DNA of 64,000 nucleotides from an uncultured Ignavibacteriales bacterium (lineage in GTDB: Bacteria > Zixibacteria > MSB-5A5 > GN15 > JAAZOE01). The stretch lies in NCBI GenBank assembly GCA_964611355.1, contig CAZSYD010000006.1, positions 1-64,000 of the forward strand. The letters run 5' to 3'. The position numbers and the translations under genes were made by a program. The notes beneath the pieces were generated by a model. It saw only the letters and a program-made list of their open reading frames with translations, ran no database searches and was not told where the DNA came from. Positions within the stretch are counted from its first letter, which is position 1. Each line of letters opens with the position of its first letter. Shown one piece after another: positions 38,478-64,000 of this stretch.

Positions 38478-38577
38478 NNNNNNNNNNNNNNNNNNNNNNN
38501 NNNNNNNNNNNNNNNNNNNNNNNNNNNNNNNNNNNNNNNNNNNNNNNNNNNNNNNNNNNNNNNNNNNNNNNNNNNNN
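38478..38577. other. assembly gap (100 N)
   Basis: Run of 100 n characters. Confidence 1.
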
Positions 38578-38593
38578 TTAGGGAGGAACCATT

Positions 38594-41386
38594 ATGCTTC
38601 ACCCATCGGGCCGGTCAAGCAAAGGCCGATATATCCACGCCATATGGCTATCCGTTATAGCGGTAATTTTCATAAATGCAACCCCTGTTCTGGGACAGTT
38701 AAATACCGAAGACATAGAAGTCCTTCGAGAGCTTGCTCGGGAGGAAGGCTGGACCTTTACGGTCGGCGAGAACCCGGCCACGAAATACCCGCTCGAGAAG
38801 TTATGCGGCCTGGTGGTGCCTGACAATTGGCAAGCTACGGCGCGATTTGATCCGATTACACCGGCCAAGGATATCCCCGTATCTTTTGACTGGCGCGATT
38901 CAAATGGCTGCACGCCGGTGAAAGCCCAGGGCAATTGCGGTAGTTGCTGGGCATTTGCCACCGTAGGGGCTTTTGAATGCAACATCAGGATTAAGGATCA
39001 AATGACGGTGGACCTGTCCGAACAATGGCTGGTCAGTTGTAATCAGAGTGGGTGGGGCTGCGATGGCGGATGGTTCGCTCATGATTATCATCAATGGAGA
39101 ACCGACCCCTGTGATAGCACGGGCGCGGTGCTGGAAGCAGATTTTCCTTATGCAGCCAGCGATCTCCCCTGCAACTGTCCCTACCAGCATCAGTTCCTGA
39201 TAAATTCGTGGGCTTTTATTGGAAATCCCTCGAGTATACCGGCCATAAGCGCGATGAAGCAGGCTATTCTGGATTATGGCCCGATAACCGTTGCCGTGGC
39301 GGCCAATTCGGCGATGCAGGCTTATACCGGTGGAATCTTCAACGGATGCGATGCTATTGAAATTAATCATGCGGTTGTCCTTGTCGGCTGGGATGATACC
39401 CAGAGCGAGAGCGGCATCTGGATCATGCGCAACTCCTGGGGATCGGGCTGGGGCGAACAGGGTTATATGCGGATGCCATACGGCTGTTCGGAGATCGGCT
39501 ATGGCGCCTGTTATATCGACTACGCCGGAACCAGAGGACTTACCTTTGACTACCCGAACGGCGTTCCCATAACCGTCTCCCCTGATCAAACAACCTCGTT
39601 CGAAGTAATGGTGAGCGGGCTCGGTATCGGAGAGCCGGTCGCCGGAAGCGGCCAATTGCATTACTCGATAAACGGCGCGGCTTTCCAGGCCGAACCAATG
39701 ACCGAAATCTCGGTCAATCACTATGAAGCTGTTCTGCCTGCAGTTACCTGTAGTCTTGAGGTAAAATTTTACGTCAGCGCGGAGGAAGCCTCAACCGGTT
39801 TGCATTATGATCCCGACCCGGCGTCGCCGCACTGGGCGATTTCGGCGCGCGAGGCTTTTACCGTTTTGGAGGATGATTTCGAAACCGATAAAGGTTGGAC
39901 TGTTTCCGGCGATGCCGCCGACGGCCAGTGGGACCGAGGCGTACCGGTTGGCGGCGGTGATCGGGGCGATCCCGCAACCGATTTTGACGGCTCCGGATCA
40001 TGCCGCCTGACCGATAATGTGGACGGCGATTCTGACGTTGATAACGGAACCACTATCCTCGATTCACCTGTTTTTGATTTAACTGGATATGACGGCATAA
40101 TTCATTATGCCCGCTGGTACTCTAATAATTACGGCGCCGCGCCTAACAGCGACGAGATGAAAATATATATATCGAGCAATGGCGGAACATCGTGGACATT
40201 AGTCGAAACCGTCGGACCGACCGAACAGGCCGCGGGAGGCTGGTATGAAACGATATTCCTCGCCGGTGACTTTATTACTCCTACCGGTCAGATGCGGCTC
40301 CGCTTTGAGGCTTCCGATCTTGGAGATGGATCGGTCGTCGAGGCGGCCGTCGATGCCGTTTATGTAATTGCCTATTCCTGCGGCACGGCGCCGGACCCGC
40401 TGACAATCGTCACGGCAACCCTGCCCGGCTGGACGGCCGGCCATCCCTTCTCGCAGACCCTCGAAGCCGTTGGCGGAGTGGGTGAGTATACCTGGATGGA
40501 TAAAAATAACGACCTTTATGGTACCGGTCTTACACTGTCGCCCGATGGTGTTCTTTCCGGTTCGCCTCTCTCGCCGGGGCTTATCTCGTTTACGGCAATA
40601 GTCACCGATCAACAACCGGATACGGATGAAAAACAGTTCGGCTTTTACATAAATGACGCCATATCTATTATGACCTTGTCTTTGCCGGATTGGACGGTTG
40701 GTATTCCCTATGAGCAGCAGCTTGAAGCCGGCGGCGGAACCGGCAATAAGGTCTGGAGCGACAAAGGAGGCGATCTGACCGGAACGGGACTGAATCTTTC
40801 TTCGCAAGGCATCTTGTCGGGTACACCTTTGACGGCGGGCCCGCTTGAGTTTATTGCCGAAGTCGCAGATCAGGTCGGCGCAACATCCGAGAGGCTTTTC
40901 AATATAACCTTGAATCCCCCCGTAAATATAACCACCGAGTCGCTTCCATCGTGCAACCTTCGAATCGCATACTCTTTCCAGATCGAAGCTACCGGCGGTA
41001 CAGGGACGCGAAGATTTACAGACCGCGACGGCGTTCTGGAAGGAACGGGCCTGACTCTGTCCGAGGATGGACTCCTGTCCGGAGAAGCGACCGTGACCGA
41101 TACATTAGATCTGATTATCCATGTTGAAGACGATCCCGGCAGTTTTGAAGAAGAATCTTTCGGTTTTGAAGTTATTCGTCCTTATGTCTGTGGCGACGCC
41201 AACAATGACGGCAGTATCAATGTCGGCGACGCTGTATTTCTGAACAATCATGTCTTTTTGGACGGGCCGCCGCCTGAGTTCCCCGAAGCGGGCGACTCCA
41301 ATGCCGACGGCAGCATAAATATCGCCGATTCCGTTTACTTGGTCAATTTCATCTTTAACGATGGTGAGCCCCCGCGCTGTCCTTGA
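38594..41386 (+). CDS. secreted papain-family (C1A) cysteine peptidase with Ig-like (He_PIG-type) repeats and C-terminal dockerin
   Basis: FDWR, QGNCGSCWAF, LSEQ, NHAV and RNSWG motifs; three GTGL.LS..G.LSG repeats; CGDANNDGSINVGDAVFL / GDSNADGSINIADSVYL. Confidence 0.92.
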   Translation: MLHPSGRSSKGRYIHAIWLSVIAVIFINATPVLGQLNTEDIEVLRELAREEGWTFTVGENPATKYPLEKLCGLVVPDNWQATARFDPITPAKDIPVSFDWRDSNGCTPVKAQGNCGSCWAFATVGAFECNIRIKDQMTVDLSEQWLVSCNQSGWGCDGGWFAHDYHQWRTDPCDSTGAVLEADFPYAASDLPCNCPYQHQFLINSWAFIGNPSSIPAISAMKQAILDYGPITVAVAANSAMQAYTGGIFNGCDAIEINHAVVLVGWDDTQSESGIWIMRNSWGSGWGEQGYMRMPYGCSEIGYGACYIDYAGTRGLTFDYPNGVPITVSPDQTTSFEVMVSGLGIGEPVAGSGQLHYSINGAAFQAEPMTEISVNHYEAVLPAVTCSLEVKFYVSAEEASTGLHYDPDPASPHWAISAREAFTVLEDDFETDKGWTVSGDAADGQWDRGVPVGGGDRGDPATDFDGSGSCRLTDNVDGDSDVDNGTTILDSPVFDLTGYDGIIHYARWYSNNYGAAPNSDEMKIYISSNGGTSWTLVETVGPTEQAAGGWYETIFLAGDFITPTGQMRLRFEASDLGDGSVVEAAVDAVYVIAYSCGTAPDPLTIVTATLPGWTAGHPFSQTLEAVGGVGEYTWMDKNNDLYGTGLTLSPDGVLSGSPLSPGLISFTAIVTDQQPDTDEKQFGFYINDAISIMTLSLPDWTVGIPYEQQLEAGGGTGNKVWSDKGGDLTGTGLNLSSQGILSGTPLTAGPLEFIAEVADQVGATSERLFNITLNPPVNITTESLPSCNLRIAYSFQIEATGGTGTRRFTDRDGVLEGTGLTLSEDGLLSGEATVTDTLDLIIHVEDDPGSFEEESFGFEVIRPYVCGDANNDGSINVGDAVFLNNHVFLDGPPPEFPEAGDSNADGSINIADSVYLVNFIFNDGEPPRCP

Positions 41387-41414
41387 ATGATAATGACGCG
41401 CCGATTTGATTCGA

Positions 41415-42803
41415 CTACCGGTGTATACCTCGGATAAAATCTCTTATCTCCGGAACGCCTCCCTGGAAAATCAGGTATCCGTCGTACGGTTCCCTCTCCG
41501 TGATATCGTCGCATATCGGCGTTAGCATTATTTCTTTTACTTTTTCCAGATCGTCGGTCTGTCCCAACGCCCAGCCCAGCTTGATATAGGCCACCTCGGG
41601 CAGCATGTTATCGGCAGCGATAATGCCGCGGCTCATCAGGTCGCGACCGGTGTCGTAAACAAACATATGGACATATCCCCAGAGGGTCTGGACGGTCATA
41701 TAGATCGCGACTCCGGCTTTGGTGGCCCTATCAATAGCCGGATAGACCTGTTTGTTGACATGCCCCAAGCCGGTACCCGCAATGACAATACCCCGGTACC
41801 CGTTCTCAACCAGCGAGTTGATAATGTCGGGATTCATGTTGGGATAATAATAGACGAGAGCTACTCTTTCTTCGAAATATGGAAGGACAGTAACGTTTCT
41901 GTCTTTTCGGCGGCGACTATAATTTTTTTGAATCGGGGTAATCTTTTCGCGGTCAACCATGGCCAAAGGAATATCGCCGATAGTCCTGAAAGTGGATCGG
42001 TACGACGAATGCATCTTGCGCACCCTTGTTCCCCTGTGCAGCAGGCCGTATTCATCGGAGGTCGGCCCGAACATACAGACCATTACTTCAGCGATGTCGG
42101 CTTCGGCGGCGACCTTGCAGGCGTGCATCAAATTCAAAGCCGCATCCGACGAGGGTCGATCCGACGAACGTTGGGAACCGACCAGTACAATCGGAACCGG
42201 CGGGTTTTGTATCATAAAAGTCAGGGCCGAAGCCGTATGGTGCATGGTATCGGTGCCGTGCCCGATAATAATACCGTCGATTCCTTTTTCTATTTCCCGC
42301 CCGATGGCTCTGGCCAGGGGAATATACTGCTTCGGCCCCATGTTTTCGCTGAAAACGGCAAACAGTTTTTCCGTGGATAAATTACAAATATCGGCCAGCT
42401 CCGGAACCGCGCCATACAATTCACCGGGAGAAAAAGCGGGAATAACCGCTCCCGTGCGATAATCAAGCCGCGAGGCAATTGTTCCGCCAGTACCGAACAG
42501 TTTAACGTTCGGCTTATCGTCCGAAACGGGGAATTCCTTCTCGGGAATCTTGTAATGAGCTTCCTTATAACCGCACTCTTTCATATCGATAATCGTCTCA
42601 ATGGCGACACCGATGTTGTAACCGTTGGCCAGTTTGAGAACGATATGGCGGTCGTCGTCATTTTCGGCGCGCGGAAGAATAATTCCCTTGAAATCACCCC
42701 TGGTTGATTTGATATGCGTATCGCTCCAGACCCGCACGCTGAATTTCTTCAGCGCTGAAAGAGCCTCGCCTTTATATCCTTTGAACATATCAGTCATGGT
42801 CAT
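41415..42803 (-). CDS. gatD: Glu-tRNA(Gln) amidotransferase subunit D (archaeal-type glutaminase)
   Basis: N-terminal extension (LKLANGYNIG) plus asparaginase fold: GTGGTIASRLDYRTGAV, HGTDT, QRSSDRPSSD, RVRKMH, GTGLGH, MLPEVAYIKL. Start may be 42797. Confidence 0.92.
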   Translation of the reverse strand: MTMTDMFKGYKGEALSALKKFSVRVWSDTHIKSTRGDFKGIILPRAENDDDRHIVLKLANGYNIGVAIETIIDMKECGYKEAHYKIPEKEFPVSDDKPNVKLFGTGGTIASRLDYRTGAVIPAFSPGELYGAVPELADICNLSTEKLFAVFSENMGPKQYIPLARAIGREIEKGIDGIIIGHGTDTMHHTASALTFMIQNPPVPIVLVGSQRSSDRPSSDAALNLMHACKVAAEADIAEVMVCMFGPTSDEYGLLHRGTRVRKMHSSYRSTFRTIGDIPLAMVDREKITPIQKNYSRRRKDRNVTVLPYFEERVALVYYYPNMNPDIINSLVENGYRGIVIAGTGLGHVNKQVYPAIDRATKAGVAIYMTVQTLWGYVHMFVYDTGRDLMSRGIIAADNMLPEVAYIKLGWALGQTDDLEKVKEIMLTPICDDITEREPYDGYLIFQGGVPEIRDFIRGIHR

Positions 42804-44802
42804 TCCCCTTTTCGACGATACCTTTCAGCTCTGAAAGCGGCATATTCCCGATTGTCGTGCCGCGAAGCTGACCCATTATCCAGTCGGTTTCGGCATCGGG
42901 GCGTTTTGACGTATTAATCTCACTAAATTTCTTTTTAAGGACGGGGATATTCGAAATTATTTCTTTTTTGGAGACTTTTCTATACCCGATCGCCGTCAGA
43001 ACGGAATCAAACGCCATTTGAGGATAACTGCAAAGCGTCGGCAGCATTTCTTTGGCTGCCGTTTTCTCCAGGCCTCGTGAACGAATAAACTTAAACAGCC
43101 CGTATATGGTATAATAGTTAAACTTCGCCGCAGGCGTCACCCGCGATTCGATATGTCTGAGATTATGCCCGAACAGAGTCCCGACGAACTTCGGCGATTG
43201 ATCGAAATCATCGATGATCTTCTGGATTATCCAGACCAGGTTTCGCTTTAGAAGGTAGCCATGTGTGTCTTCGGGTATTTCCCACTCTTTTAGTTGCGCC
43301 AGTCGATAATCAATCGCCTGCGGCAGATGTTGTCGTATTTTTTCTATATCCGCATCCTCGATTGGAATCGGCGCGGAATCGGTATCGGGATACATGCGGT
43401 CGGCGCCGGGGAGGACCCGTTCAAAGATGGTGGTGCCGTCCGGAAACGATTTTCTTGTTTCATTCGGAACGCCGGTAAAAGCCATCCGGCAACGTTCCTC
43501 AATCGTTTCGAGGGCTGTTTCCATATCCTCGGAAGGCCCCCAAACGATTATCTGAGCATCATCGTGGCCGGCGTTTAATTTTTCCCTGATGGCATCCCAT
43601 CCATTCTGATCCAAAAACGGCGCTTTCTTTTCCGGCGTGTCTTCATCAAACGGGAATAATTCCGAATGCGTCATGTTTGGTTTTTCGATACAGGCAATAA
43701 CTTTCAAACGATCGCTCAACTCGTTGGCAAACGTCTTTCCCGGCTGCGTGAAAAACGACACGATACCGCCAAACTTCGGGAGATTTACGGCTGCCAGACG
43801 ACGCTTATTCAAGCGCGCTTCCCGGATAAATCCATATCCGTTACGAAGAAGGTTCCGTTCAATATCAATGGCGTTTATCTTCCAGGAAGGAGCATCTTTT
43901 ATTCTTTCGTTCAGGATATTCCTGATCTCCAGCAAAGCCTTCTGACGAAAGGCCTCGTTATGCACCAGTTCCGGTATCCATTTAATGTGCGCGACTCCTT
44001 TGATTTCGACCCGGTCGCCTCCGTCGATACTGACGTTGACATCCTGCCGGGCGGCGCCGATCCCGGTCCGGACTTTGCCGGTGCTCCGAGCCAGATAACG
44101 AAGATAATGACCCGCCTCGGCCGCCTCATCGGGAGTTAGCATGTCGGGATAAGTGATCATTTCGATAAGCGGTATCCCCAGGCGGTCGGTAGTATAAATC
44201 CTCCAATGCCCAGTGTCGGACACTTCCCGGCAGGCATCCTCTTCTATATTAAGCTGAATTATTCGGATATTTTTATTTTTAAGAGGTATCTCCCCTTCTA
44301 TCCCGACAATGGCCGTTCGTTGAAACCCGGTCGGAATCGAACCGTCGAGATACTGTTTTCTGGTGATATGCAATTCTCCGACGATGTTGGTTTTGAGAAG
44401 CAGGGAGATTTCAACGGCGATATCAAGCGCCTCGCGGTTGATAGAAAACGGCGGCGTATCATCAATATCATAAGTACACGCCGATTCGTCCTTGATCCGG
44501 TAGATGATATTCTTTTTGGTCTTGAATTCCATCAAGGCGGTGCCGTCATACTCGCCAAGTTCGCTGAGAGTGGGGCGCATATGCCGAACGACCTCGGCAT
44601 CGTAGTCATTACCATCCTGATACAGCCCTGCAGGACAGCGGCAGAACAGCTTTTTCGCCGTTTTTAATTGTTGATGAATCTCAATGCCGCATTTGAAACC
44701 GAGCTGGCAATAGATTTCCGGGCCTGCGTTATGACGAGAAACGTAACCTATTTTTCGTTTAGTCTGCTCGTAATTGTCCCGGGGATTAACCTGCCGCATC
44801 AT
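42790..44802 (-). CDS. gatE: Glu-tRNA(Gln) amidotransferase subunit E (archaeal-type)
   Basis: GIEIHQQL, KLFC.CP, RPTLSELGEYD, DGSIPTGFQRT, EEDA, DRLGIPLIE, RQDVNVSI..G.RVEIKGV, central insertion, GVPNETR and PGADRMYPDTD. Confidence 0.92.
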   Translation of the reverse strand: MMRQVNPRDNYEQTKRKIGYVSRHNAGPEIYCQLGFKCGIEIHQQLKTAKKLFCRCPAGLYQDGNDYDAEVVRHMRPTLSELGEYDGTALMEFKTKKNIIYRIKDESACTYDIDDTPPFSINREALDIAVEISLLLKTNIVGELHITRKQYLDGSIPTGFQRTAIVGIEGEIPLKNKNIRIIQLNIEEDACREVSDTGHWRIYTTDRLGIPLIEMITYPDMLTPDEAAEAGHYLRYLARSTGKVRTGIGAARQDVNVSIDGGDRVEIKGVAHIKWIPELVHNEAFRQKALLEIRNILNERIKDAPSWKINAIDIERNLLRNGYGFIREARLNKRRLAAVNLPKFGGIVSFFTQPGKTFANELSDRLKVIACIEKPNMTHSELFPFDEDTPEKKAPFLDQNGWDAIREKLNAGHDDAQIIVWGPSEDMETALETIEERCRMAFTGVPNETRKSFPDGTTIFERVLPGADRMYPDTDSAPIPIEDADIEKIRQHLPQAIDYRLAQLKEWEIPEDTHGYLLKRNLVWIIQKIIDDFDQSPKFVGTLFGHNLRHIESRVTPAAKFNYYTIYGLFKFIRSRGLEKTAAKEMLPTLCSYPQMAFDSVLTAIGYRKVSKKEIISNIPVLKKKFSEINTSKRPDAETDWIMGQLRGTTIGNMPLSELKGIVEKGNDHD

Positions 44803-45060
44803 TATTTGTCCTGGGCCATGCCGCCTATACTTACCCTCGATGAGCCTGCTCTGCCGTTTTGAGATAGAAGGTAAGAGAAATATTCACCCATATCAAGCCT
44901 TTTTAGGAATCATATCGTTGCATATCATTGATATTTGCGTATGGATATCATCAATTGGTTTGATGAAGTAAATTAATATCTAATGCATTTTTTGATTGAC
45001 ATCAGGCATCATGAACGGTTAGTTTTAAGGGAATCAATCATATTTGATGGAGTGTTGTTT

Positions 45061-45363
45061 ATGCGCAAAATTAAAAAGAGAGTTGCAGGGAGAAAAGCCG
45101 CGCCAAAACGTACCGGGAAAACGACGACCAAAGCCAAAAAGACGACCCGCAAGAGAAGGATCAGGCTGTGGACCGCGAAAGAAATAAGCGTACTCAGGAA
45201 GGCGTACAAAACCACGCCCACGAAGGAAATCGCCAAAGAGCTGAAAAGAACAGTCATCGCGGTTCGCGGCAAAGCCGTCACCCTTGGATTGAAAAAACGT
45301 GCGATTAAAAAAGCCGCACCAAAGAGGAAAAAAGCAGCCAAAAAGAAAATTCGGAGACGTTAA
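45061..45363 (+). CDS. very basic histone-H1-like protein with central Myb/HTH-like module
   Basis: 100 aa, 43 Lys+Arg, 3 acidic residues; core WTAKEISVLRKAY..TPTKEIAKELKRTVIAVRGKAVTLGL; GGAG RBS; own terminator. Confidence 0.75.
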   Translation: MRKIKKRVAGRKAAPKRTGKTTTKAKKTTRKRRIRLWTAKEISVLRKAYKTTPTKEIAKELKRTVIAVRGKAVTLGLKKRAIKKAAPKRKKAAKKKIRRR

Positions 45364-45393
45364 AATCTGCTATCGGATTTTCTATTCGGAATT

Positions 45394-45420
45394 AAAAGCC
45401 CGCCAAAGAGCGGGCTTTTT
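45394..45420 (+). terminator. intrinsic terminator
   Basis: AAAAGCCCGC-caaaga-GCGGGCTTTTT. Confidence 0.85.
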
Positions 45421-45495
45421 CAATGAAGCGTACTCGACTTGAACAACAGCCATTTCCCGGGGCGCAATCTTTTTCGGGCGACTAACGTTTTTTTC

Positions 45496-45524
45496 TTGAC
45501 AAAATAATGTCATTTTGGTAGATT
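45496..45524 (+). promoter_or_regulatory. sigma70-type promoter
   Basis: TTGACA-N17-TAGATT with TGn extension. Confidence 0.6.
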
Positions 45525-45665
45525 AAAAATAGCTGCAAATACTGCTAAAGTAAGTCTGACACAAATACCCGTTTTCGGGTAAAGCATTTTATAGGGCAAG
45601 CCTATAATTCTACAGGTAAGGGACAGCGAAAATACAGTTATCCTTCACACAAATAAGGAGGAACC

Positions 45666-47819
45666 ATGTCACATCCCTGTAATCTCTTTCAAAGGATACT
45701 ACCGGGCATTATCCTGTTTTCGTTATTAGGGGGAACGCTTCAAGCCCAGCCTCCGGACAGCAGTAACGTACCGTTTGAAATTGAAATAGGGTTACTACAG
45801 GACAGCCCCCTGGGTCAAATCGTGTCGGTGCCGGTGACAAAGACGGCCGGTTCTGAGGATATGTACGGATTTGATTTCCTGATTGGATTTGATGCTTCCG
45901 CCCTGACACTGGTAAACGTAACGGCCGGCGAGATATTCGACAGTTCCGGAGCTTATCAATGGGAGTACTTTTCATTTCGCTCGGATACGGCCTTTGTTTA
46001 CGATGACGACTCTTGCCTTACGGCGTTGATCCGAGCCGTCGGCGTGGCCGAGATAAACAATGGCGCTCACCATCCACTGGAATTCAACATTCCGGACGGC
46101 GCGACCGTGTTCACTCTTGATTTTTTGGTCACCGATGACTCGTCTTATCAGTGCTTTTACAGTCCTGTCCGGTTTTTCTGGATGGATTGCGGAGACAATG
46201 CCATTGCCATGGAGGACACACTTTCGACACTCCTGGCGATTTCCGACCGGGTGTATGACATTTTTGGAATCGACATCACCAATCCAAACGCTGACTTCCC
46301 TACCTATTTCGGCGCCCCCGATCTTTGCGTCGGCGACAGTAACAACGGGGTGGTACGTTTCATCGACTACTACAACGGCGGCGTTAACATCATCTGTAAC
46401 GATTCAATCGAATATACAGGTGATATCAATCTCAATGGCATTGCCTATGAGATTGCCGACATGGTTGTCTTCACTAATTATTTCTATTATGGATTGGAGG
46501 CTTTTGGAGACCATTACGAGGCCAGCGCGGCGGCTTCCGATGTCAATTACGACGGCATTGTCCTCCAGTTCGAGGATTTGATCTATCTGTATCGAGTTGT
46601 CTGTGGAGACGCCATGCCAGGCTACCCCCTGATGAATCCGCCTGTTCCGGATTCGGCACTCTTTACGCAGGACATTGAAACCAGTACCGTTTCGGTCGGT
46701 TACCACGATACCCTGGCCGGGTGTTTTCTACTGTTTGACGGAGAAATTACGCCACACTTCCTTCTTGACACTGCCTCTCATACATGCGGTTTCGAACATG
46801 ACAGCGGGCTTACCCGGGTAATAATCACGCCTCCGCTGGGCGGTATGCAGGATAGCTGCTGTAGAGGGTTTACCAGCGGCCCGCTGTTTACTTATTCGGG
46901 TGATGGTCTTTTGATAGAAGCTCAGACTGCCGATTTCAATAACCACGTCTTTGCGACCGGGATCGAGATTACAGGTTACGAGCCGCCCGATGTGGTATTG
47001 AAGGTTGCGATTGACAGCACAATCGCCTTTCCCGGTGAGTCGCCGGTATATATCGATGTTTATATGGATAATCCTTTTGATACGGTGGTCGGCTTCACCC
47101 TGTTGATAAACCTGGATCGAACCGACCTGATAGAGTTCCTGCCCCCCACCGGGGATACAATCATCGACACTACCGTCTGGCGTTATTGCGGCGAATGGTC
47201 AGGCGATACCTGCCTGTACTGGGTTGACACGACCATAATTGAAACATGGCCATCATCGGGGGCCGTTGATACAACAGGTACTATGATATCCGGATGGAAT
47301 CTGGTTACCTCCCGTTCGCCTTCGGGAACGAATCACGATTTGAAAGTCACCGGCATCGCCAACACTTTTGGCAGAACCCTACCCGGTATTGCACCTCAAG
47401 AGGGCGGCCTGCTGTTGCGATTAATGGCAAGAGCATATCACGAAGTTCCCGACTCAACTGCCGGTTTGACGGCGCGACTGCTTATCGTCGATAATCCCTC
47501 GGAAACCGACTTTTCCGATCAGTTGGGATATATTATCGGACTGCAGAGCGAGCCATATCCTCATTATGATACCGCAACTGTTTCATTTATCGACGGGATG
47601 GTGCAAGTTGTACCAGTTAGGCCGGGCGATGCCAACGGCGACGATTTTGTCAATATCGGCGATGTGGTATTTCTCGTCAAACATGTTTTTGCGTCCGGAC
47701 CGGCCCCTGAGCCGGAATTTCGCGGAGATGCCAATTTCGACGGTGAGGTTAATATTGGAGATGGCGTGTACCTGATAAACTATATTTTTAAAAGCGGTCC
47801 TCCCCCCTGGGACCAGTAA
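45666..47819 (+). CDS. secreted protein with two cohesin-like and two dockerin domains (scaffoldin/adaptor-like)
   Basis: Signal peptide; VSVPV...GFDFLIGFDASALTLVNVTAG; internal GDINLNG/SDVNYDG dockerin; AFPGESPVYIDVYM..VVGFTLLI; C-terminal GDANGDDFVNIGDVVFL/GDANFDGEVNIGDGVYL. Confidence 0.72.
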   Translation: MSHPCNLFQRILPGIILFSLLGGTLQAQPPDSSNVPFEIEIGLLQDSPLGQIVSVPVTKTAGSEDMYGFDFLIGFDASALTLVNVTAGEIFDSSGAYQWEYFSFRSDTAFVYDDDSCLTALIRAVGVAEINNGAHHPLEFNIPDGATVFTLDFLVTDDSSYQCFYSPVRFFWMDCGDNAIAMEDTLSTLLAISDRVYDIFGIDITNPNADFPTYFGAPDLCVGDSNNGVVRFIDYYNGGVNIICNDSIEYTGDINLNGIAYEIADMVVFTNYFYYGLEAFGDHYEASAAASDVNYDGIVLQFEDLIYLYRVVCGDAMPGYPLMNPPVPDSALFTQDIETSTVSVGYHDTLAGCFLLFDGEITPHFLLDTASHTCGFEHDSGLTRVIITPPLGGMQDSCCRGFTSGPLFTYSGDGLLIEAQTADFNNHVFATGIEITGYEPPDVVLKVAIDSTIAFPGESPVYIDVYMDNPFDTVVGFTLLINLDRTDLIEFLPPTGDTIIDTTVWRYCGEWSGDTCLYWVDTTIIETWPSSGAVDTTGTMISGWNLVTSRSPSGTNHDLKVTGIANTFGRTLPGIAPQEGGLLLRLMARAYHEVPDSTAGLTARLLIVDNPSETDFSDQLGYIIGLQSEPYPHYDTATVSFIDGMVQVVPVRPGDANGDDFVNIGDVVFLVKHVFASGPAPEPEFRGDANFDGEVNIGDGVYLINYIFKSGPPPWDQ

Positions 47820-61380: not shown

Positions 61381-62106
61381 ATGAGTAATGTTCAGGTTAA
61401 ACCCACTCCCGCTCAGCGCCAGCTAACGTTCATCAGTTCCTCGATCGGAAAGAAGATCTCCCAAGCCGTAACCGGCTTTCTCATGTTCGTCTTCGTGGTG
61501 GGGCATATGGTGGGCAATCTCCAGATTTTCATCGGTCAGGACCAGTTGAACGCTTACGCACAGGCGCTAAAAGACCTGCCGGCTCTGACCTGGTCGGTTC
61601 GTGTTGTGATGTTTGTCTGCCTGGTAATTCACGTCTGGCGCGGCATCCAGCTATACTTCGAGAACCGGTTCTCGCGGCCCATTCGCTACGTCGTTAACGC
61701 GACCGTTCAGGCACCGCTGGCTTCGCGCACGATGATTTTCACGGGTGGCGGGGTCTTCCTCTACTTAATCTATCACCTTCTCCACTATACGTTCATCGTC
61801 ACGAACCCGCAATACGCCAACCTCCATGACACTCTGGGGCGGCATGACGTCTACTCGATGGTTATACTCGGTTTCCAGAATGGGTTGATATCAGCCGTCT
61901 ATTTCCTGGCGCTCTTCTCCCTCTGCTATCATCTGACCCACGCCATTCCTTCGCTCTTCCAGACTCTGGGGCTCAACAATGAGAAGACCAAAACGAAGTT
62001 CAAAGTTCTGGGATGGCTTGTGGCAATAGCGATATTCGTCGGGTACTCCGTTATACCGGCGGCAACTCTGTTGAAGATCATCAAACTACCGGAAGGAGTG
62101 CTCTGA
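61381..62106 (+). CDS. sdhC: succinate dehydrogenase/fumarate reductase cytochrome b subunit
   Basis: SSIGKK..AVTG..HMVGNL; four His in TM helices; HL.HA..SLFQTLG. Confidence 0.92.
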
Positions 62107-62107
62107 T

Positions 62108-64000
62108 ATGAAGCTTGAGTCGAAAGTTCCATCCGGTCCGCTCGCCGAGAAATGGGATAAACACCGCTTCGAGATGAAGCTGGTCAACCCAGCCAACAAG
62201 CGCAAATACAGTGCTATCGTAGTCGGTACGGGCCTGGCCGGCGCATCGACGGCCGCCTCGATGGCCGAACTCGGCTACAACGTAAAGGCCTTCTGTTTCC
62301 AGGACAGTCCCCGACGGGCGCACTCCATCGGCGCGCAGGGGGGAATTAATGCAGCCAAAAACTACCAGAACGATGGCGATTCCATCTGGCGCTTGTTCTT
62401 CGATACGATCAAGGGGGGAGATTTCCGCTCGCGAGAAGCCAACACATACCGCTTGGCGCAAGTGTCGGTCGATATCATAGACCAGTGCGCCGCTCAGGGG
62501 GTGCCGTTTGCGCGCGAATACGGCGGCACACTGGCCAACCGTTCCTTTGGGGGAGCCCAGGTATCGCGCACATTCTATGCTCGCGGGCAGACCGGACAGC
62601 AGTTGTTGTTAGGTGCCTACTCAGCACTCCAGCGCCAGATCGGCCTTGGAAAAGTGCATATGTTCCCCCGCACCGAGATGCTTGATCTCGTGCTGATTGA
62701 CGGTCACGCTAAGGGAATTGTCGTGCGCGACCTCGTAACAGGTAAAATCAGTTCGCACGCCGCCGATGCCGTCGTATTGGCCACCGGCGGATACGCACGG
62801 GTGTTTAACCTTTCTACGATGGGCCTGGGATGCAACGTCACCGCTATCTATCAAGCCTATAAGAGAGGAGCGCTCTTTGCCAATCCGTGTTTTACCCAGA
62901 TACATCCTACTTGCATCCCGCACACGGGAGACTATCAGTCGAAGCTTACCCTGATGTCCGAGTCATTGCGCAACGACGGCCGTATCTGGGTGCCCAGGAA
63001 TAAGGGCGACAAGCGCCTGCCCGGAGAAATCCCAGAAGAAGAACGCGATTACTATCTGGAACGAAAATATCCCAGTTTCGGTAACCTTGCCCCCCGCGAT
63101 ATTTCATCGCGCTCCGCCAAGGAGGTCTGTGATGATGGATGCGGAGTTGGTTCATCCGGATATAGTGTGTACCTGGACTTCGCCGAAGCTATTGAGCGCT
63201 TGGGTCGAGAGGTGATTACCGAACGATATGGAAATCTCTTTGAAATGTACCATCTCATAACCGATGAAGACCCTTACAAGGTCCCAATGCGCATATATCC
63301 AGCCGCCCATTATGCTATGGGCGGGTTATGGGTCGATTACAATCTGATGAGCAATATTCCCGGCCTCCATGTTATCGGCGAGGCCAACTTCTCTGACCAC
63401 GGTGCCAACCGCCTGGGAGCTTCGGCTTTGATGCAAGGGTTGGCCGACGGTTATTTCGTCCTGCCGTATACGATTGGCGACTACTTCGCCCGGGTAGGGG
63501 CACAGAGTATCTCTACCGACCGCTCCGAGTTTGGCGAGGCCGAAGAAGCCGTCGCCGCGCGCATAAAGAAACTTCTGTCGGTTAACGGCGAACGCACGGT
63601 CGACTCTTTCCACAAGGCGCTGGGTGAAATAATGTGGGAGAAAGCCGGCATGGCCCGCAACGAAACCGACTTGAAAGAAGCGGTCGAACAGATTACGGCG
63701 CTGAGGAATGAATTCTGGCAGAATGTCAGGGTTATAGGGAGCACTAACGAAATGAACCAGACGCTGGAGAAAGCGGGCCGCGTGGCTGATTTCCTCGAGT
63801 TCGCCGAGATCTTCTGCTATGACGCTCTCAACCGGGAAGAGTCCTGCGGCGCTCACTTCCGCGAGGAGTATCAGACTGAAGATGGAGAAGCCCTGCGCAA
63901 CGACAAGAAGTTCGCATACGTCGCCGCATGGGAATACAAGGGCGATGGTGTCAAACCGGAACTGCATAAGGAGGAGCTCGAGTTTGAGAATGTTGAGCTG
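62108..64000 (+). CDS. sdhA: succinate dehydrogenase/fumarate reductase flavoprotein subunit (3'-truncated by the window)
   Basis: Manual translation [42 protein letters not shown]...[18 protein letters not shown]; further [19 protein letters not shown] and ESCGAHFR motifs. Confidence 0.95.

Follow-up and report, generated by a model that had tools for sequence, protein, structure and literature searches.

We find that an uncultured bacterium (an Ignavibacteriales bacterium in GenBank, placed in the Zixibacteria by GTDB) carries an intact and resident gatE–gatD operon for the tRNA-dependent amidotransferase GatDE in a genome that also encodes glutaminyl-tRNA synthetase (GlnRS) and a complete GatCAB. 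The operon lies in a 64,000-nucleotide stretch of DNA, hereafter the window (assembly GCA_964611355.1, contig CAZSYD010000006.1, positions 1 to 64,000). We propose, with a probability of roughly 55%, that the enzyme would act as an auxiliary Glu-tRNAGln amidotransferase, using canonical chemistry on bacterial Glu-tRNAGln with a U1-A72 first base pair, beside GlnRS. Papers are cited by PMC accession, each for extracts of its text.

Identity and integrity of the gatE–gatD pair

A preliminary description of the window had reported two overlapping, full-length open reading frames (ORFs) with GatE and GatD motifs, a central insertion in GatE and an N-terminal extension in GatD, and it is borne out on each point. 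The coordinates match (Table 1), and the quoted motifs are all present in GatE (EIHQQL at residue 41, DGSIPTGFQRT at 153, RQDVNVSI at 252 and PGADRMYPDTD at 465) and in GatD (TGGTIASR at 105, HGTDTM at 182 and SSDRPSSD at 213), a set that is far above chance expectation. In profile searches GatE scores 492.2 bits on NF003107 (equivalog cut-off 456) and 422.1 bits on TIGR00134 (equivalog cut-off 319.55) and passes none of the GatB models, for which the cut-offs are 315–680 bits and the best score is 139.6 bits against that model's own cut-off of 338. For GatD the scores are 512.1 bits on TIGR02153 (cut-off 324) and 510.9 bits on NF003217 (cut-off 310), and the protein contains the Pfam domains GatD_N (PF18195, residues 31–71), Asparaginase and Asparaginase_C. 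It also passes a type I asparaginase subfamily model (383.9 against 260.5 bits), below the 512 bits of the GatD equivalogs. The proposed check of GatD and GatE models against those of AnsA and GatB thus places the proteins with GatD and GatE.

Comparison with known structures gives the same picture. Among PDB sequences, the best matches of GatE are 2D6F_C (305 bits) and 1ZQ1_C (280 bits), and no GatB chain exceeds 74 bits; those of GatD are 2D6F_A (401 bits) and 1ZQ1_A (395 bits), and no free asparaginase exceeds 137 bits. An AlphaFold2 model of GatE (mean predicted local distance difference test 82.6, predicted template modelling (TM) score 0.81) retrieves 1ZQ1_C and 2D6F_D/C on top in Foldseek (E 5e-43 to 3e-40, TM score 0.78–0.84 on the target), and GatB chains rank next at E 1e-22 and weaker. 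The inserted domain is present: the Pfam model GatB_N, of 277 positions, is stretched across residues 37–486, and the alignments to 2D6F_C and 1ZQ1_C are unbroken through residues 296–440. We take this domain to be AspRS-like; the AspRS matches that Foldseek returns for the GatE model are weak only (probability 0.2–0.57). The C-terminal helical and YqeY-like tail domain is also present, in that the NF003107 alignment extends to residue 655 (profile position 616 of 630), the 1ZQ1_C alignment extends to residue 633 and the model has helices at 483–668. Pfam PF02637 is undetected in GatE and is recorded in just 9 of the 120 closest homologues.

The catalytic residues are in place as well. Those of the Mg site of Methanothermobacter thermautotrophicus GatE, given in a 2008 review as His15, Glu157 and Glu184 (PMC2330236), align to H43, E187 and E214 of the window protein, which are conserved in 114 (plus two gaps), 116 and 116 of 116 bacterial rows, respectively. 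The GatD active-site residues T105, T108, T184, D185 and K263 are identical in all 71 bacterial GatD proteins aligned. Judged by these alignments, the catalytic machinery is under constraint and the enzyme is active-looking. Both subunits are encoded on the same strand by overlapping genes, and this overlap implies a single transcription unit with probable translational coupling. As read from its sequence, the gene pair is a true, intact and full-length GatDE, not GatB/AnsA.

Table 1 Features of the operon, its products and its surroundings in the window.
Feature	Position	Strand	Description	Source
gatE	42790..44802	-	670 aa, tRNA-dependent kinase/amidotransferase subunit	ORF list
gatD	41415..42803	-	462 aa, asparaginase-type glutaminase subunit with GatD N-terminal domain	ORF list
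gatE stop/gatD start overlap	42790..42803	-	14 nt	
gatE upstream intergenic region	44803..44982	.	180 nt, bordering a divergent Lys-rich ORF	
GatE domain order			cradle, inserted domain (residues ~296-440), helical, tail	
GatE first-base-pair loop	residues 243-247		K243-V-R-T246-G247	
GatE tail motif	residues 644-656			
sdhC (b558 family)	61381-62106			annotated flank gene
sdhA (Bacillus-type)	62108-64000			annotated flank gene
Scaffold N gap	38478-38577		100 N, 2.8 kb from gatD	

The region upstream of gatE presumably holds the promoter of the operon. Searches of Rfam gave no match to a leader RNA there at E <= 0.1, and within 40500–46000 they gave only a sub-threshold isrJ match at 45360–45419 (29.1 bits against a gathering score of 37). 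This match stands just after a Lys/Ala-rich ORF of 126 aa that is divergent from gatE (44983–45363, + strand) and has no Pfam or NCBIfam family. A consensus scan of 41000–45700 found 8 promoter-like sites (5.6 +/- 2.7 in shuffled sequences) and 4 terminator-like sites (5.5 +/- 2.1), with no promoter-like site above shuffles in the intergenic region itself. The sigma70 promoters and intrinsic terminators that had been listed as bacterial features near the operon therefore carry no weight.

Residency, spread and phylogeny of bacterial GatDE

The host is a metagenome-assembled genome (MAG) of 2.57 Mb in 110 contigs (the window is contig C6), with a rated completeness of 96.4% and contamination of 1.7%. 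This fragmentation and the N gap near gatD are what could speak for an archaeal fragment that was mis-binned or mis-assembled, or for a very recent archaeal island, an explanation to which we give next to no credence. The genes around the operon are bacterial in type and include a papain-like peptidase with dockerin, a cohesin/dockerin protein, DUF5916 and an OmpA-like protein, and sdhC and sdhA do lie on the operon's side of the gap, as had been stated. No mobile element is seen among the 18 flanking ORFs annotated in 33.9–64 kb, the window not having been scanned whole for them. The operon matches its surroundings in GC content (0.498; window 0.491) and in third-codon-position GC (0.55–0.59; neighbours 0.54–0.65). 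In all four same-family genomes compared, one of them a single contig, gatE–gatD is accompanied by two to three of the genes that flank it in the window (DUF5916 in three, a 422-aa ORF in two and a LiaG-like gene in two), at an identity of 64–71% for GatE and 83–86% for GatD.

Independent assemblies were sought for the junctions. Logan contigs from four salt-marsh metagenome runs cross from the peptidase gene (pepC1) into gatD (two records), from gatD into gatE (three) and from gatE into the upstream region (three), and in one record 90 letters fill the N gap; the run with the best matches may be the source sample, which makes this bridging evidence partly non-independent. Synteny in the relatives and junction-spanning contigs exclude a chimeric or recent archaeal insert, and the nearest homologues of GatE also argue against one: the closest are bacterial, 60–92% identical and, where named, come from Zixibacteria, Aminicenantes or Acidobacteria MAGs, whereas the GatE chains of the two solved archaeal GatDE structures are 33–34% identical (Foldseek alignment) and rows named archaeal reach at most about 39%. 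The scaffold join across 38478–38577 looks right, because three of the four relatives have the permease beyond it in synteny and a metagenome contig spans the gap. The contigs of all four runs branch at 38742–38787 and 41192–41231, inside the peptidase/dockerin gene; these are probably short repeats common to other genes, since matches of 65–93 aa from four window proteins land on the same places in the relatives' loci. They are forks of the assembly graph and not breaks.

Within the phylum, GatE is above cut-off in 157 of 257 genomes of at least 80% completeness, and all 13 other members of the host's family have a match at E <= 1e-94. The operon is therefore resident, vertically inherited and native to the bacterium. 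The preliminary description was right to place GatDE in a genuinely bacterial genome, and the chimera that it had considered is contradicted by the metagenome contigs across the flanks. Its suggestion that this lineage acquired GatDE does not fit an operon that is syntenic across the genera of the family and present in most of the phylum genomes; since bacterial GatE also forms one clade (see below), any acquisition long predates the lineage.

Beyond the phylum, a scan of one genome per prokaryotic species yielded at least 598 confirmed loci of the bacterial GatDE clade, and the locus analyses here use the best 80, all bacterial by title. Bacteroidales and other Bacteroidota make up the majority of these 80, among them the cultured Perlabentimonas gracilis, Marinifilum flexuosum DSM 21950 and Labilibaculum sp. 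K2S, and the remainder are Ignavibacteria, Aminicenantes, Omnitrophota, Cloacimonadota, WOR-3, Acidobacteriota, Planctomycetota and Fermentibacteria/Aegiribacteria. Seventy of these loci have gatD after gatE on the same strand, and several of the other ten are short of 3' flank. NCBI and JGI already label such bacterial proteins GatE, so that the similar annotations which had been suspected in uncultured bacteria do exist, and in cultured bacteria too. The window operon is an ordinary member of a large, database-annotated bacterial clade and no new kind of gene. At two loci (L066:2473-5989 and G252:C39:13123-14664) GatE lies within an open frame of 1172 codons, against the usual 650–700, which could be an N-terminal fusion or a long stop-free leader; at L066, glnS is divergent and just upstream of the gatE frame.

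Two trees of GatE were built. A FastTree of 206 rows (the window, 80 named loci, 7 homologue or cluster rows, 114 unnamed 50%-cluster representatives and 4 GatB outgroup rows) splits GatE into a group of 77 rows with all four rows then named archaeal and a group of 125 rows with all 84 named bacterial rows. Those basal to the bacteria were identified by look-up as Heimdallarchaeota, Hodarchaeales, Thorarchaeota and Odinarchaeota. In an IQ-TREE analysis of 54 rows (LG+C20 with posterior mean site frequencies; a quick search, which makes the supports less reliable), the 25 bacterial rows form one clade at 100% in the Shimodaira–Hasegawa-like approximate likelihood-ratio test (SH-aLRT). This clade is sister to a Heimdallarchaeota row (cluster of P0167) at 98% SH-aLRT, and both fall inside an Asgard or Asgard-like group (86%), apart from 16 other archaeal or archaeal-like rows (97%). 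Unnamed rows were grouped by their place in the FastTree, namely P0123, P0127, P0130, P0140 and P0160 among the bacterial ones, 12 of the 16 rows called 'other archaeal' and 5 of the 9 called 'Asgard-like'. The monophyly of bacterial GatE is thus well supported by these trees. Both also nest it within Asgard archaea, but a tree that keeps the archaea together is not rejected (log-likelihood difference 5.99, approximately unbiased (AU) test p = 0.336; the archaeal constraint group was defined after the first tree had been viewed). The phylogeny with archaea that had been proposed earlier thus yields a separate bacterial clade, and an origin by transfer from Asgard-like archaea is at present no more than a lead.

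Coexistence with GlnRS and GatCAB, and the proposed function

The genome inventory that had been suggested as a check finds glnS, a bacterial-type gltX and gatCAB all present. GlnRS is full-length and scores 790.5 bits (cut-off 426), and GatCAB is complete (GatA 614 bits, GatB 590, GatC 81). Asparaginyl-tRNA synthetase (AsnRS, 474.5 bits) and a bacterial AspRS are also encoded, together with two GlnA and two AsnB-type asparagine synthetases. The single glutamyl-tRNA synthetase (GluRS) is bacterial in type (TIGR00464, 525 bits), and its gene is directly upstream of that for GlnRS; the glnS model, which does detect archaeal GluRS in control genomes, finds no archaeal-type GluRS in the host genome. 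By its gene content, then, the host has all routes, direct as well as indirect, to Gln-tRNAGln and Asn-tRNAAsn. The gltX and glnS genes stand head to tail, about 140 nt apart (C11:14205-17331), and their adjacency or close linkage recurs in other genomes (G125, G126, G127, G128, G134, G135, G136, G137 and several phylum genomes of other families). A second glnA immediately precedes gatA, and gatB follows about 0.8 kb later (C10:54520-59540), and gatC is found at C14:23384-23653.

The tRNAs are bacterial in their first base pair. ARAGORN finds 40 tRNAs in the host; those for Asn, Cys and Ile are missing, as fits an incomplete MAG, and both tRNA-Gln genes (CUG and UUG) have U1-A72, G2-C71, G3-C70 and G73. 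In the one-contig family genome, an Rfam search gives 44 tRNA genes, of which two are tRNA-Gln, both U1-A72/G73, and the single tRNA-Asn is likewise U1-A72/G73; none of the 44 is an archaeal-type A1-U72 tRNA-Gln. Reading the 1-72 pair had been named beforehand as a check, and its result speaks against the altered tRNA identity that had been considered. Two further observations concern the host tRNAs. A tRNA-Glu(CUC) gene (C91:3804-3879) has a G1-U72 wobble pair and discriminator A73, while tRNA-Glu(UUC) has the usual G1-C72 and G73, and a tRNA-Sec(UCA) gene is present at C10:36181-36275, because of which the organism probably uses selenocysteine.

How often GatDE stands beside GlnRS or GatCAB was counted in several sets of genomes. 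Sample A, chosen before other genes were examined, consists of the host and 39 genomes of its phylum (13 family members and 26 with at most 10 contigs). GatE is found in 35 of these 40, and GlnRS in 30 of the 35 carriers; the five without GlnRS (82, 83, 98, 99 and 99% complete) all have GatB. Eighteen genomes have GatE but not GatB, and GlnRS is present in all 18 and AsnRS in 16 (the misses are 80% and 87% complete). GatE, GatB and GlnRS occur together in 12 of the 35, the host included. Sample B comprises 37 further GatE carriers of the phylum without a weak GatB-type match (absence of GatB was directly re-tested in one), and GlnRS is found in 36. The 37th, which lacks GatB and looked 'GatDE-only' (G236), was rejected as such, given that a C-terminal fragment of glnS stands at the end of its contig C34 (23118–23297 of 23298), where the assembly cuts the gene. 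Four more genomes of the G236 family divide into one without GlnRS but with GatB and three with GlnRS, two of them without GatB. Sample C was drawn from named loci for taxonomic spread and holds 30 GatE carriers of other phyla, with GlnRS in 27 (24 above cut-off and 3 fragments) and GatB in 8; two of the three without GlnRS have GatB, one of them a complete Phycisphaerales chromosome. The remaining genome, an Aegiribacteria MAG with neither (G273), is not counted as evidence, its completeness being unknown and its gatE contig only 5.9 kb long. Pooled, GlnRS or GatB is found in 105 of 106 GatE carriers, with evidence of GlnRS in 97 and GatB in 8 of the other 9; the pool includes related, non-independent genomes, and a gene missing from a MAG counts for little. 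Even so, the same pattern is seen in different families and phyla.

These results bear directly on the idea, raised in the preliminary description, that the lineage makes Gln-tRNAGln by an archaeal route, taken here as an obligatory one with GatDE and a non-discriminating GluRS as the main source. The intact and conserved GatDE would suit such a route, and archaeal GatDE works in exactly this way (PMC2330236, PMC9499178). Against it stand a full-length GlnRS encoded next to gltX, the complete GatCAB, AsnRS, the absence of an archaeal-type GluRS and tRNA-Gln with U1-A72, not A1-U72; moreover, only the fragmented MAG G273 among the 106 carriers lacks both GlnRS and GatB. We regard this route as very improbable for the host. 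Because GlnRS and GatCAB are encoded too, GatDE would not be the sole source of Gln-tRNAGln, and probably not the main one.

Two tRNA-recognition elements of GatE differ between archaea and bacteria. In GatE a short, conserved and positively charged loop replaces the 3-10 turn of bacterial GatB beside the first base pair (PMC2811023). At the position before G247, 96% of the 77 archaeal rows have Arg (loop V-K-R-G), and the Asgard rows have V-R/K-R-G, whereas 72% of the 116 bacterial rows have Thr and 20% Arg (loop V-R-T-G), with T246 in the window protein. A Gly-rich motif in the GatE tail (GXXAXGX) has been implicated in the discrimination of Glu-tRNAGln from Asp-tRNAAsn (PMC2811023), and from its position we infer that it corresponds to the archaeal consensus R-G-K/R-x-D-G-K of the present alignment. 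In most bacterial rows this is replaced by x-G-N-I/V-x-L (I651-G-N-M-P-L656 in the window). Both changes are as expected for, and consistent with, a shift from A1-U72 to U1-A72 substrates, although they are no proof of it. The altered enzyme specificity that had been offered as one option is thus compatible with clade-specific changes in two recognition elements.

If GatDE acts as an auxiliary Glu-tRNAGln amidotransferase, GatD would free ammonia from Gln or Asn, and GatE would phosphorylate the side-chain carboxyl of Glu on tRNA-Gln and amidate it to give Gln-tRNAGln. The enzyme would then offer a second tRNA-dependent route, or a clean-up, for Glu-tRNAGln that the single bacterial-type GluRS may form by mischarging, and the changed first-base-pair loop and tail motif of GatE would aid its action on U1-A72 tRNA-Gln.

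A changed or widened substrate remains a live rival. Bacterial GatDE could amidate Asp-tRNAAsn, alone or with Glu-tRNAGln, and so provide tRNA-dependent asparagine synthesis. Because the tRNA-Asn of the closed family genome has the same U1-A72/G73 as its two tRNA-Gln, an enzyme tuned to U1-A72 would lose the first-pair cue that archaeal GatDE uses against tRNA-Asn (PMC2330236), and the tail motif implicated in telling the two substrates apart (PMC2811023) is replaced in the crown bacterial clade. AsnRS in the host and in 16 of the 18 genomes with GatE but not GatB makes this unlikely, as do the host's two AsnB genes; no active-site feature favouring Asp was seen, and Asp-tRNAAsn is no substrate of archaeal GatDE (PMC2330236).

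Also live, and in our view slightly more doubtful, is a repurposed GatDE that acts on another aminoacyl-tRNA or a non-translational acceptor, or as a regulated glutaminase/asparaginase. At least 76 genomes keep the operon with GlnRS and without GatCAB, and formally need no indirect pathway, and the tRNA-recognition elements have diverged. Conversely, every kinase and amidotransferase residue is conserved, as is the tRNA-binding architecture as a whole, no recurrent neighbour gene in the 80 loci suggests another pathway, and archaeal GatD is inactive without Glu-tRNAGln (PMC2330236).

Several points weigh against an auxiliary Glu-tRNAGln amidotransferase. A discriminating GluRS, if that is what the host has, would leave GatDE without its canonical substrate. 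Arg at the position of Thermus thermophilus R358 marks a discriminating GluRS. The host GluRS has Arg in this column, where the non-discriminating T. elongatus enzyme has Gly; so do all 33 GluRS examined, from 32 phylum genomes that include five without GlnRS, and with Arg universal the rule is uninformative on discrimination. All eight GlnRS-less GatE carriers with adequate data keep GatCAB, which fits a GatDE that is unable to replace GlnRS and hence is not a full Glu-tRNAGln amidotransferase. For 36 of the genomes counted as GatB-less, absence means only that there is no weak GatB match. Genomic context gives no help, with gltX and tRNA-Gln beside gatE–gatD in none of the 80 bacterial loci and glnS and glnA in one each, which leaves gene neighbourhood uninformative as a functional clue. 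None of the 24 runs listed as containing this DNA is an RNA run, which is uninformative on expression either way.

In three GlnRS-less genomes of the phylum a divergent GluRS was seen (G058:C2:335526-336941, G249:C2:432590-434005 and G035:C1:965654-966817), which has a lower score on gltX_bact (431–473 bits) and differs in sequence near the anticodon-binding column. The two GluRS types occur together in G035, whose divergent copy contains a TGA.

Bacterial GatDE in relation to known systems

Reviews up to 2022 still place GatDE in archaea only (PMC9499178, PMC2811023), and a 2009 abstract calls it exclusive to archaea (PMC2811023). Co-evolution arguments rest on this, linking GatDE with A1-U72 tRNA-Gln and with the absence of GlnRS from archaea (PMC9499178, PMC2811023). 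We found no paper on bacterial GatDE, with GatDE papers since 2016 judged by title and subscription journals outside the coverage. Databases hold hundreds of bacterial GatDE operons, some of them in cultured Bacteroidales, and the literature still overlooks them. New here are the GlnRS, GatCAB, AsnRS, GlnA and AsnB set of the host, its U1-A72 tRNA-Gln, the co-occurrence in 105 of 106 carriers and the differences in loop and tail. The question is thereby sharpened to why GlnRS-bearing bacteria keep an intact GatDE and how it reads U1-A72 tRNA, and cultured carriers make experiments feasible.

More broadly, and only tentatively, since we hold it at somewhat less than an even chance, bacterial GatDE could be no transplanted archaeal pathway but a separate ancient branch that was retuned from A1-U72 to U1-A72 and is purely accessory to GlnRS/GatCAB across phyla. 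Its task might be to clear away Glu-tRNAGln that a leaky GluRS produces, to provide Gln-tRNAGln under a shortage of free glutamine, or to act on tRNA-Asn as well. If this is true, GatDE as an archaeal signature would need revision, as would the view that GatDE co-evolved with A1-U72 and thereby excluded GlnRS from archaea, and the Arg-to-Thr change in the loop, together with that in the tail motif, would be a specificity switch.

The archaeal GatDE of M. thermautotrophicus (2D6F) and Pyrococcus abyssi (1ZQ1) is like the window pair in its subunits, domain order, GatE Mg site and GatD Thr plus Thr-Lys-Asp residues. The setting differs: archaea lack GlnRS (PMC9499178) and have A1-U72 tRNA-Gln, whereas the host has GlnRS, GatCAB, a bacterial-type GluRS and U1-A72 tRNA-Gln. 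In GatE, archaea have Arg before the loop Gly where the window has Thr, and the tail motifs differ; the window genes, for their part, overlap in one operon. The non-bacterial branch closest to the bacterial clade in the rooted tree, Heimdallarchaeota GatE (cluster of P0167), is 39% identical to the window protein, with its sister position subject to the AU p = 0.336 given above, and, unlike the window protein, it keeps the archaeal loop V-K-R-G and tail R-G-K-I-D-G-K. Within the bacterial GatDE clade the window operon is like the others, with 50–71% identity across phyla and nothing distinctive in its sequence.

Bacterial GatCAB is the other point of comparison. GatB and GatE are paralogues with common cradle and tail domains and common chemistry, and bacterial GatCAB also reads U1-A72 (PMC2811023). 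GatE differs in its inserted domain and in the short loop that takes the place of the GatB 3-10 turn, and the glutaminase is an asparaginase-type GatD in GatDE but an amidase-type GatA in GatCAB. Deinococcus, Thermus and Bdellovibrio have a seemingly redundant GatCAB beside GlnRS and AsnRS (PMC4206432), and GatDE is in a like position in the host. In those genera GatCAB is explained by tRNA-dependent asparagine synthesis, whereas the host of the window has AsnB genes.

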